Shown here: positions 41,228 through 42,443 of the stretch, one piece after another | Position numbering within the stretch: position 1 is the first letter of the stretch | Layout of the letters: each line of letters starts with the position of its first letter | Source: Siniperca chuatsi | Taxonomy: Eukaryota | Direction: 5' to 3' | Assembly (NCBI RefSeq): GCF_020085105.1 | Contig: NC_058053.1 | Coordinates: forward strand, 24,413,196 to 24,477,195 | DNA: 64,000 nucleotides | Position numbers and translations under genes: made by a program | The notes under the pieces: model-generated | Seen by the model: the letters and a program-made list of their open reading frames with translations, nothing else | The model's database searches: none | Told to the model about the DNA's origin: nothing

Positions 41228-41456
41228 AACTCTGGCCAATGGCCTTCTGCGGAGATATCCCGCCCCTTCCAATCACCGCACAGTATTTGTTCCCGTTAGG
41301 CAAAACACACAGCCAATCAGATGGCTGAATTTGTTCCAATTGCGAGAATCAATGTTTTTGGCATCCAATGGGAGAAGCGGATTTGTTCCAATTTCTCTCA
41401 GTGATCCCGCCTCCTGCAAGCGGACTTTTTACTGCCGCAGAGACAGAAGCAAGTCG
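41228..41456 (+). promoter_or_regulatory. CCAAT-box-dense promoter-like module S1 (unit A) with a short 5' exon ending at donor TCG|GTGAGT
   Basis: Six CCAAT/ATTGG motifs lie in about 230 bp (ggCCAATgg, tcCCAATca, agCCAATc, ttCCAATtg, tCCAATggg, ttCCAATtt), with GC boxes (cccgcccc, cccgcctcc). The exon segment gcagagacagaagcaagtcg precedes gtgagtg (41457). Confidence 0.5.
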
Positions 41457-42214
41457 GTGAGTGAAGCATTTGTCAGTTATTATGAAGTATTGGACGGAAA
41501 ACATGTTAAAAACTTATAATTCCGTCTGACATTAGTCATACTGAGCTAACCGAGGTGTTTATATGTTGGGAAATAGTTGAGTGACGGATGAAACAGCGTA
41601 AAGTTAGAGCATTATTAGTTCTTACAATGTCAGACTTTAATTTTACTGTAAGGAATTTATTATATAAACGTTTTTATAAATTGCTTTGTTTTAGCCATCT
41701 AACGTTCATGCTGTTTAAACCATTTTAAACACTGTACTGCAGGCTGATAGCATGCTAACACACCCACCGCTGTCGGCTGGTCGGTGTGTTTCATACTGCT
41801 TATGTGATTAACAGTCCAGCGGAGCTGAAGGCAGCCGGCATGTTTTATGGGGAAACTAGCAGCTGGTCGAGTGGCTGGTGGATTCCTTAAGCCTTCCTGT
41901 TCCACCAGGAGAGAAAGTGCAGCTCCTCACCGTATGAATATTCAATTAGCCATGCGGCCAGGAAGGTAAACAGAGGCGGAGCCTGCCATAGGTAACAAGC
42001 GGAGAGAAGCAACAGTCAAAAGGTCTCTTTTATTTACAGTTTTTACAATGTACAAAACATCTACTAAGACTCCACACTCTTCTGCAGTAATTCTGCCTCG
42101 GTTAAACTGTTTTAATACCCCCTGAAGCGCTTCTCCAGCTTTGCCACAGCCGGGGATCGAACCGCTGACCGCTGAGCCCCCTCCTCTTTTTACTCAGTCA
42201 ATGAACTGTCGCCT

Positions 42215-42443
42215 CAACTCGGCCAATGGCCTTCTGCGGAGATGTCCCGCCCCTTCCAATCACCGCACAGTATCTGTTCCCGTTAGGCAGAACACACAGC
42301 CAATCCGATGGCTCAATTTGTTCCAATTGCGAGAATCAATGTTTTTGGCATCCAATGGGAGAAGCGGATTTGTTCCAATTTCTCTCAGTGATCCCGCCTC
42401 CTGCAAGCGGACTTTTTACTGCCGCAGAGACAGAAGCAAGTCG
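42215..42443 (+). promoter_or_regulatory. CCAAT-dense promoter-like module S2 (unit A); an internal ~1-kb duplicate of S1
   Basis: Same motif array. The donor gtgagt is at 42444. A tRNA T-arm-like SINE remnant lies just upstream, at 42150-42185. Confidence 0.5.

Follow-up and report, generated by a model that had tools for sequence, protein, structure and literature searches.

CCAAT-dense modules in a Siniperca chuatsi array of defective Dada-U6-type transposons: a candidate promoter and first exon of the transposase gene

The array and its CCAAT-dense modules

The stretch of Siniperca chuatsi DNA analysed here (64,000 nucleotides of contig NC_058053.1, assembly GCF_020085105.1; referred to as the window) is eukaryotic and fish-like in character, including spliced exons, microsatellites and a LINE-like repeat. 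It contains a head-to-tail array of gene-like units. A CCAAT-dense module of ~230 bp occurs six times in this 64-kb window, as a pair (S1 and S2) in each of the units A, B and C. The original prediction took the modules for promoters and first exons of a host gene, but the array consists of elements of the known Dada-U6 family of DNA transposons, which are defective and tandemly amplified. The positions of the first CCAAT box (Table 1) bear out the predicted number of modules, and the distance between S1 and S2, expected to be about 1 kb, is 987 bp. Each unit joins a ~987-bp piece, composed of S1, a partial intron and a 3′-end piece, to a ~5,925-bp piece that runs from S2 through a remnant gene to a ~1-kb dispersed repeat. 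Units B and C hardly differ from each other, and both diverge from unit A by ~1%. The array falls short of the three full units assumed before, as homology of unit C is lost after ~57310.

In each module, a stretch of 157 bp holds six CCAAT pentamers, which are separated by 33, 44, 23, 29 and 23 bp. Pentamers in both orientations at a spacing of 20-35 bp had been proposed; instead, all six lie on the plus strand at distances of 23-44 bp. The unusual density itself was confirmed. The window has a background of 1.8 CCAAT or ATTGG per kb, 300 dinucleotide-preserving shuffles of it gave at most four same-strand CCAAT per 160 bp, and a count of six was never attained when the module itself was shuffled 5,000 times. 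As shuffles never attain the observed density, the cluster is real. Of the predicted GC boxes, one per module is canonical (CCCGCCCC, at 41259), whereas the second is only a CCCGCC at 41406. A sequence scan of the module revealed no TATA box. The module is closed by a CG/GTGAGT splice donor (exon end 41456/42443, GT 41457/42444), 64 nt after the last CCAAT. A further concentration of CCAAT/ATTGG pentamers at 26141-26591 (five in ~450 bp) was rejected as a related cluster because of its mixed orientation and lack of similarity to the module; it might be an ordinary promoter.

Table 1. Coordinates of the array, its surroundings and the published Dada-U6 5′ ends used for comparison
Feature	Position	Strand	Remarks
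Whole head-to-tail array	41228..57310	+	2.33 units of ~6,911 bp
Module A_S1, read as Dada 5′-terminal region	41228..41456	+	six CCAAT, three CCAAT-N11-ATTTGTTCC composites, one GC box, short exon 1
CCAAT starts in A_S1	41236, 41269, 41313, 41336, 41365, 41388	+	
Module A_S2	42215..42443	+	structure as A_S1, 5 substitutions relative to A_S1, donor GT 42444
Module B_S1	48140..48368	+	
Module B_S2	49127..49355	+	
Module C_S1	55050..55278	+	
Module C_S2	56037..56265	+	
Box 1 (first CCAAT) of the six modules	41236, 42223, 48149, 49135, 55059, 56045	+	
5′ part of intron 1 after S1	41457..41884	+	second copy behind S2 (42444-42882); homology with intron 1 in Dada-U6-2_TrLo and Sebastes L003
Probable Dada 3′-terminal segment fused head-to-tail to S2	42062..42214	+	GCCGGGGATCGAACCGCTGACC, then …CCCCCTCCTC…, then AATGAACTGTCGCCT
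Equivalents of the 3′-terminal segment	about 48974-49126, 55884-56036	+	
Transposase remnant, 5′ half, copy A	43066..45140	+	exons 3-8 of the family, DAFT… through DUF6729 position 78
Internal deletion junction	45133..45140	+	~2.1 kb missing (Sebastes L003 14031-16141): most of DUF6729 and the DDE/DxxH core
Transposase remnant, 3′ half	45192..46540	+	exons 45192-45517, 45629-45862, 45964 to about 46540
Intact U6 small nuclear RNA gene	38664-38769	-	Rfam 112.6 bits; uninterrupted GCGCAA Dada target site
Older inverted Dada debris	32073..36549	-	3′ gene part, GGGGATCGAACC piece (33426-33319), exon 1 donor and intron 1 (33290-32677), exon 2
Dispersed ~1-kb repeat	47138-48110, 54046-55020, 30302-31303	+	82-84% identity between copies
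Dispersed ~1-kb repeat, inverted copy	13579-14561	-	82-84% identity between copies
Dada-U6_EtSp, published 5′ end	CCAAT 54, 79, 137		donor 234
Dada-U6A_PeFlu, published 5′ end	CCAAT 89, 127		donor 235 (GTGAGT)
Dada-U6B_PeFlu, published 5′ end	ATTGG 73, 125, 157		donor 271
Dada-U6_SpAu, published 5′ end	ATTGG 87, 118, 151, 175		donor 270
Dada-U6-1_GMo, published 5′ end (210 nt read)	ATTGG 95, 138, 170		no donor within the 210 nt read
Dada-U6-1_TrLo, published 5′ end (210 nt read)	ATTGG 88		donor 190

Downstream of S2 lie the two halves of a decayed gene, the exons of which were traced by their GT-AG boundaries with a bacterial-style listing of open reading frames (ORFs) as frame guide only. After frame repair the 5′ half matches Pfam DUF6729 (PF20499; profile positions 1-78 of 229, 1.6e-25). 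A Pfam search of most remnant ORFs returned nothing beyond this domain and a reverse transcriptase-associated domain in the dispersed repeat. Homology searches place the remnant in a protein family of percomorphs, the members of which are annotated as 'uncharacterized'. Siniperca chuatsi itself provides the closest partial matches (97%), and the best full-length homologue is a protein of 686 amino acids from Centropristis striata (P0001). Many public gene models of such Dada fragments (among P0001-P0073) carry misleading names like bromodomain-containing protein 4-like, TPRXL, formin-like protein 5, IFF6-like or USP16. DUF6729 is suggested to be the N-terminal part of the Dada transposase including the CCCC zinc-finger region; a full-text literature search for the domain name retrieved no paper.

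The stops, frameshifts and deletions of this gene are at odds with the host gene with coding first exon and intact downstream ORF that had been predicted. Its presumed exon 2 (43066-43253) is open from the acceptor and reads DAFTRYSSAYPDFVEAVRFHRAFEEAQQKSLQ… in copies B and C, and copy A has compensating -1 and -2 frameshifts at 43075/43190. An in-frame TGA (…APAPEE*RQEE…; 44692-44694 in copy A) and a frameshift after …WWYPPKPG are common to the two complete copies, A and B; copy B shows, in addition, indels in the exon that follows, as well as a GC donor. In the 3′ half, the C-terminal CCHC zinc finger contains an in-frame stop (…YTCSKCGQP*RIDTGHTRIAGVSYC…). Since the DDE/DxxH core is deleted, the copies in the window are non-autonomous, and what looked like a gene is the remnant of a transposase that has decayed and lost internal parts.

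The initiation codon was expected in one of the 5′ exons. Intact members of the family, however, carry ~115-125 residues (MEHPTFRR…SQSPLMANK) ahead of DAFTRYSS and start in a separate exon of 349 nt located between exon 1 and the presumed exon 2. Neither this ATG-exon segment nor anything past residue 438 of P0001 was found anywhere in the window; the exon is missing at about 42999-43036. At this place cctttaaaaggagggcccctaagg resembles the reverse complement of the start of the Larimichthys ATG exon (ccttaacgggaccctccttttaaaag), which hints at a small inversion that may have accompanied the deletion. Exon 2 itself is open without an ATG. The statement that no in-frame ATG precedes its acceptor does not hold for the modules: each of the six can be read into exon 2 in an open frame of 80 codons, and this frame includes an ATG within the CCAAT cluster (41352/42339), which looks fortuitous.

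Relation to Dada-U6 transposons

Dada-U6 elements are inserted between U6 fragments 1-70 and 65-104 and are flanked by a 6-bp target duplication, GCGCAA, from U6 positions 65-70 (TTGCGC in the 2022 table). They possess 9-bp sub-terminal repeats (TCTTCTCTG/CAGAGAAGA) and no terminal inverted repeats. The elements measure ~9 kb, with 11 exons and a transposase of 1,402 amino acids, the gene of which is oriented opposite to U6 in fish. The transposase has a DDE core with a DxxH motif, an N-terminal CCCC finger and a C-terminal CCHC finger (Kojima & Jurka 2013, PMC3706591; Kojima 2022, PMC8869645). It has been reported as a distant relative of the hAT, P and MuDR-type superfamilies, and Dada copies with non-U6 flanks are on record.

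The elements in the window resemble this family, especially Dada-U6_EtSp, Dada-U6A_PeFlu and Dada-U6-2_TrLo (PMC3706591, PMC8869645), in their transposase homology (DUF6729/CCCC finger, DxxH, CCHC finger), in the multi-exon gene opposite to U6, in a 5′ block of ~230 bp that can be aligned with the published consensus sequences, and in internally deleted derivatives that keep both ends. For instance, positions 42126-42559 align with the Dada-U6-2_TrLo consensus over 489 columns with 61% identity, including the junction of a 3′ end with a 5′ end, and the order of the parts is that found at S2. Full-length relatives (the Sebastes ORF and P0001) share VRLDIWHLMRRF…RRRTRGPEES…CIQDPPGV, KARITSTFGSILKMDSTKKV and …ILKMDSTKKV with the published transposase alignment and end in a finger of the described type, C-x2-C-x9-H-x8-C. 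Comparison of the module with the 3′ end of its unit found no terminal inverted repeats, which fits Dada. The non-autonomous zebrafish element Dada-U6N1_DR retains exactly the 5′ 231 bp, a block of the size of the module, so that this block is a functional unit of the element. In contrast to canonical Dada-U6 copies, those in the window lack flanking U6 halves, a target duplication and the ATG exon; they are joined head-to-tail, and amplification has turned them into a segmental repeat of 6.9 kb. An initial assignment to Zisupton/KDZ transposons, for which there was no supporting evidence, was dropped once U6 arrays appeared around the relatives.

These relatives were compared at loci of Centropristis striata (L001), Larimichthys (L002), Sebastes fasciatus (L003) and Cyclopterus (L004), which, according to an Rfam scan, sit in arrays of RNA polymerase III (Pol III) genes. 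The Centropristis locus is a clean reference example of a complete Dada-U6 element with canonical insertion site, TTGCGC duplication and sub-terminal repeats. Here, a tandem U6 array with a period of 1,097 bp and at least 13 copies in 23 kb (L001 1-8851, 17399-22961) is interrupted by an insertion of 8,618 bp (8785-17402) where one U6 copy is expected. The left flank is a perfect U6 match up to …CATCCTTGCGC and the right flank resumes perfectly at TTGCGCAGGGG…. The target duplications lie at 8779-8784 and 17403-17408, and the sub-terminal repeats read TCTTCTCAC and TTGAGAAGA. In L001 and L002 the transposase strand is opposite to U6, as it is in the window, where the elements are on the plus and U6 on the minus strand. 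The window U6 gene, the natural target of the family, is located upstream of the array, at a distance of 2.5 kb, and points in the opposite direction. It is a neighbour of the array rather than its insertion site, and its 5′ stem is not the canonical one (GTGTTACTCCGGTAGCAC).

Pol III genes accompany the elements in different species. In Sebastes fasciatus, at least 13 tRNA genes are densely arrayed (L003 61-7499) directly upstream of the Dada-type elements, five U6 copies lie upstream of the elements of Larimichthys, and two U6 genes are found in a head-to-head arrangement of elements in Cyclopterus.

The exon organisation of the intact relatives provides the context for the module. In Centropristis, seven same-strand CCAAT boxes lie at L001 8818-8912, the first of them 34 nt inside the 5′ terminus. 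They are followed by a short non-coding exon with a GTGAGT donor, an intron of ~1 kb and the ATG exon (10001-10349; MEHP...MANK), which begins exactly at the ATG and is separated by a 77-nt intron from the DAFT exon. Oryzias melastigma (blastn E=7e-12), Sebastes and Cyclopterus possess homologous modules, which precede the ATG exon by ~1-1.4 kb. The Sebastes gene model P0030 uses the homologous exon and donor, its first 36 codons corresponding to L003 10001-10109 and being followed by GTGAGT. Ab initio models of goodeid fish translate through the module (…LFQFRESIFCAPITGRGLFQFL…). No CCAAT cluster was found within 4 kb upstream of the Larimichthys ATG exon in L002, where a U6 copy and ~480-bp tandem repeats are located; therefore, the module is not universal among individual copies.

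The same arrangement is visible in the 5′ ends of six published Dada-U6 families (Table 1). They contain one to four CCAAT/ATTGG boxes at positions 54-175, followed in five of the six by a donor at 190-271. In the four families that were read to 420 nt, the 120 nt that follow are free of such boxes. Depending on the lineage, the boxes face either way, and they invariably fall between terminus and first donor; this fits an orientation-independent factor such as NF-Y. The short exon with its consensus GTGAGT donor, as originally predicted, is thus supported by P0030, by Centropristis and by the published consensus sequences. The first exon and its donor are accordingly genuine features of the transposon family, and exon 1 appears to be non-coding in intact relatives.

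Motif architecture and the promoter reading

NF-Y recognizes CCAAT within the flanks Y-R-R-CCAAT-S-R-S. NF-Y-dependent promoters are TATA-less and have their boxes about 60-100 bp ahead of the transcription start. Measured against the six flanking positions of this consensus, boxes 1, 3 and 5 match at five to six and box 2 at four, whereas boxes 4 and 6 match at one or two positions only. The proposed NF-Y-type clustering, for which a motif scan had been suggested, can thus be maintained for boxes 1, 3, 5 and partly 2, but not for boxes 4 and 6, which are the tail of a separate repeated motif, ATTTGTTCCAATT. Orthologous boxes in other species match at four to six positions.

Boxes 2, 3 and 5 are each followed by ATTTGTTCC after a fixed gap of 11 nt. 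The same offset was found in Centropristis, Oryzias, Etheostoma, Perca and Trematomus, and 12 composite units from six species yield the consensus CCAATCaga..gc.G.ATTTgTTCC, in which both motifs are invariant while the spacer drifts. One unit, CCAATCAGATGGCT.A.TTTGTTCCAA, is nearly identical to a unit in Dada-U6_EtSp. All 15 occurrences of ATTTGTTCC in the window are confined to the modules and lie on the plus strand. The 9-mer GTTCCAATT occurs 13 times in the window, 12 times in modules and once, in antisense orientation, in the U6 gene.

Taken together, we consider it very likely that each module is the 5′-terminal ~230 bp of a Dada-U6-type DNA transposon, most likely comprising its own TATA-less RNA polymerase II (Pol II) promoter and a non-coding exon 1. 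The promoter and first-exon reading of the original prediction survives in so far as the module is promoter-like and has a real donor, but as a Dada-U6-type 5′ end and not as a host promoter of the cell-cycle, histone, HSP70 or MHC type. The alternative considered at the time, a transposable element, was right about the nature of the sequence; the copies are clustered and were not shown to be dispersed. Judged from its motifs, the module is best read as an NF-Y-type promoter of the transposase gene. NF-Y would bind the boxes with consensus-type flanks (1, 3, 5 and partly 2), and a further factor, a host transcription factor or possibly the transposase, would bind ATTTGTTCC 11 nt after each of three boxes. 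Transcription would start within or just after the CCAAT cluster, giving rise to a short 5′ untranslated region (UTR) as exon 1, which would be spliced from the GTGAGT donor over an intron of ~1 kb to the transposase ATG exon. NF-Y binding, promoter activity and the start position are predicted here from the sequence.

Several points weigh against this view. NF-Y sites were called by consensus flanks and not by a scored matrix. As the last CCAAT is just 64 nt away from the donor, exon 1 would be very short or the start would fall inside the cluster. The coding sequence of P0030 starts inside the CCAAT cluster, upstream of the last CCAAT, and this model may be ab initio. The conserved 5′ 231 bp could reflect cis-requirements of transposition and not of transcription, and one old inverted copy is wholly devoid of the CCAAT block. 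As to the identity of the element, neither U6 halves (cmscan, E<=5) nor TTGCGC flanks were detected beside any module in the window, the sub-terminal 9-mers are degenerate, and the Sebastes relatives adjoin a tRNA array without U6. Therefore, the label 'U6-targeting' for the exact sub-lineage in the window rests on homology. In A_S1, the sub-terminal repeat is only recognizable as ATCTGCTG-TTCC, and the 3′ pieces contain only a degenerate ACTCAGTCAATG. The degenerate extreme 5′ terminus of A_S1 probably reaches upstream to about 41200 (…GGAATCTGCTGTTCCAACTCTGG); immediately to its left (41150-41200), an Rfam scan and inspection detected no decayed U6.

Other explanations fare less well. That the module is a chance or low-complexity cluster, or a mere by-product of tandem duplication, can practically be dismissed. 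The apparent count is indeed inflated by six look-alike copies, for which one ancestral module accounts, but already a single module beats every shuffle and the boxes are kept in independent homologs from at least six other species; shuffles and cross-species conservation together refute this explanation. It is also very improbable that the array represents a cluster of domesticated genes with a function for the host, comparable to dDada of carps, with the modules as working NF-Y promoters and a protein starting at the module ATG (41352/42339) or at an internal ATG (43390). Domesticated Dada does exist in Cyprinoidei, homologous arrays are covered by the annotated Siniperca models P0013 and P0033, and the 80-codon frame with its ATG is open from the module through exon 2 in all six modules. 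However, the stop and frameshift common to copies A and B are accompanied by private frameshifts in each and by the GC donor in B, the zinc finger is interrupted by a stop, and the ATG exon and 2.1 kb of the core are deleted. Moreover, each unit contains the ~1-kb dispersed repeat, LINE-like (long interspersed element) by its reverse-transcriptase-type ORF, and the differences between copies do not preserve the frame.

An explanation that we regard as unlikely is that the repeated motifs are mainly sub-terminal binding sites of the transposase, that is cis elements of transposition, with the CCAAT pentamers as a by-product. GTTCCAATT would be an antisense copy of U6 nt ~31-39, and one DNA-binding domain would read both the transposon end and the target. 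The restriction of GTTCCAATT in the window to the modules and the antisense strand of the U6 gene speaks for this, as do the poor NF-Y flanks of boxes 4 and 6 and the terminus of the Centropristis element, the first ~45 nt of which still resemble U6 beyond the insertion point (Rfam calls L001 8742-8851 as U6 at 48 bits). The latter would extend the target mimicry noted by the 2013 authors for the 9-bp repeat. Yet the NF-Y-type boxes (RRCCAATCAG) are distinct from GTTCCAATT and conserved in their own right, and lineages without the 9-mer (U6B_PeFlu, SpAu, GMo) keep three to four inverted ATTGG boxes at the same place. Furthermore, neither ATTTGTTCC nor GGAACAAAT was found at the 3′ end of the Centropristis element, unlike typical two-ended transposase sites. 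A promoter role and a transposase-binding role are not mutually exclusive. One might speculate, with a low expectation of being right, that the Dada-U6 5′ end is a dual-purpose module in which NF-Y boxes are interleaved at 11 nt with the target-copied motif ATTTGTTCCAATT (~antisense U6 nt ~31-39). The transposase domain that finds U6 would then also dock at the 5′ end beside NF-Y and couple transposase transcription to end and target recognition.

For the promoter reading, the closest functional parallel is the multi-CCAAT, NF-Y-bound promoters documented in mammalian LTR12/ERV9 and MER elements and mouse RLTR10 (PMC12065363, PMC3730095). These are likewise promoters of transposable elements with several consensus-quality CCAAT boxes at more than one per 100 bp, and they are linked to expression in the germline and early development, as a transposon needs. 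In contrast to Dada, a cut-and-paste DNA transposon of fish with predicted NF-Y sites, they are retroviral long terminal repeats (LTRs) for which NF-Y has been shown by chromatin immunoprecipitation, and only the Dada boxes alternate with a second motif at fixed distance. In sub-terminal regions of the hAT, P and MuDR type, promoter and transposase-binding sites overlap in the 5′ end. The ~200-bp 5′ sub-terminal region of Dada is similar in being kept by non-autonomous derivatives, in its short repeated motifs and in its location upstream of the transposase gene. It differs by the lack of terminal inverted repeats, the restriction of the repeated motif to the 5′ end and the putative nature of transposase binding. 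The two Dada papers (PMC3706591, PMC8869645) are silent on CCAAT and NF-Y as well as on a Pol II promoter or UTR, and they do not describe the CCAAT-N11-ATTTGTTCC composite and the non-coding exon 1, which are visible in the published sequences. The novelty here is thus limited to an additional set of copies and to a promoter-like 5′-end architecture that was previously undescribed though readily visible.

History of the array and implications

A head-to-tail junction between element ends is a better reading of the S1 and S2 pair than the mere duplication of a promoter next to a SINE (short interspersed element). A tRNA-like SINE remnant had been assumed upstream of S2 (42140-42180), but ARAGORN found no tRNA there, and Rfam returned nothing at gathering threshold or at E<=5. 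Just a B-box-like GGGGATCGAACC is present (42153-42164; the reverse complement of a tRNA T-arm or Pol III B box), and the segment around it matches the conserved 3′-terminal region of Dada-U6 in L001 (…GCTGGGATCGAACCGGCCACC…CCCCCCTTGAGAAGATTGAGCAGTAAGCT), in Dada-U6-2_TrLo and in another published consensus with a U6 flank. GGGGATCGAACC is located ~60-100 nt from the 3′ terminus in L001 (about 17311-17330) and in two published Dada-U6 consensus sequences; its conservation is curious in a transposon that targets Pol III genes.

Most likely, the S2 junction is a Dada 3′ end joined directly to a 5′ end that has lost its first ~20-40 nt. Neither U6 nor a target duplication was found between the two. 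A junction of ~30 nt of the S2 type also precedes S1 in units B and C, and A_S1 keeps a longer, terminus-like 5′ flank. Comparison of 41885-42215 with the 3′ end of the large unit gave a match limited to the last ~25-40 nt; a 'miniature element plus large element' model of the array is therefore plausible, not proven. As the dispersed repeat lies inside each 6.9-kb unit, amplification occurred by segmental duplication of an already dead, rearranged pair and not by transposition. This repeat, which contains a reverse transcriptase-associated ORF with a Pfam PF09004-type match, looks like a LINE fragment.

The older inverted debris displays the same order of parts as the array, is more diverged and is the copy without CCAAT block; its exon 1 donor is GTAAGT at about 33265, ~70 nt after the GGGGATCGAACC piece. 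Head-to-tail fusions of a Dada 3′ end to a truncated 5′ end, without U6 or target duplication, were seen in three species: in the window (42190-42222, 48117-48148), in Sebastes (L003 about 9880-9945, 19100-19230) and in the Trematomus consensus Dada-U6-2_TrLo. Such recurrent fusions could be inherited tandem arrays, products of repeated recombination or footprints of circular or concatemeric intermediates. The window also contains a compound CA-microsatellite/minisatellite at 28469-28877 with periods of 47-49 bp and 170 bp.

Because the elements in the window are defective, their six modules are fossil or orphan promoters, which could at most drive non-coding or truncated transcripts. For genome annotation, a false lead is thereby removed: the locus is an array of dead Dada transposons and not a novel CCAAT-driven cluster of host genes. 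Dada elements integrate at one exact site in multicopy small-RNA genes, and a Pol II promoter of their own had not been described. The conserved cluster of NF-Y-type boxes, present in either orientation across lineages, is a candidate for this promoter, and its fixed-distance partner motif, which resembles the U6 target, is a candidate recognition element. If the dual-purpose idea were true, the two motifs together would form the first concrete cis-code for target recognition by a sequence-specific DNA transposon and would be directly testable for engineered site-specific integration.

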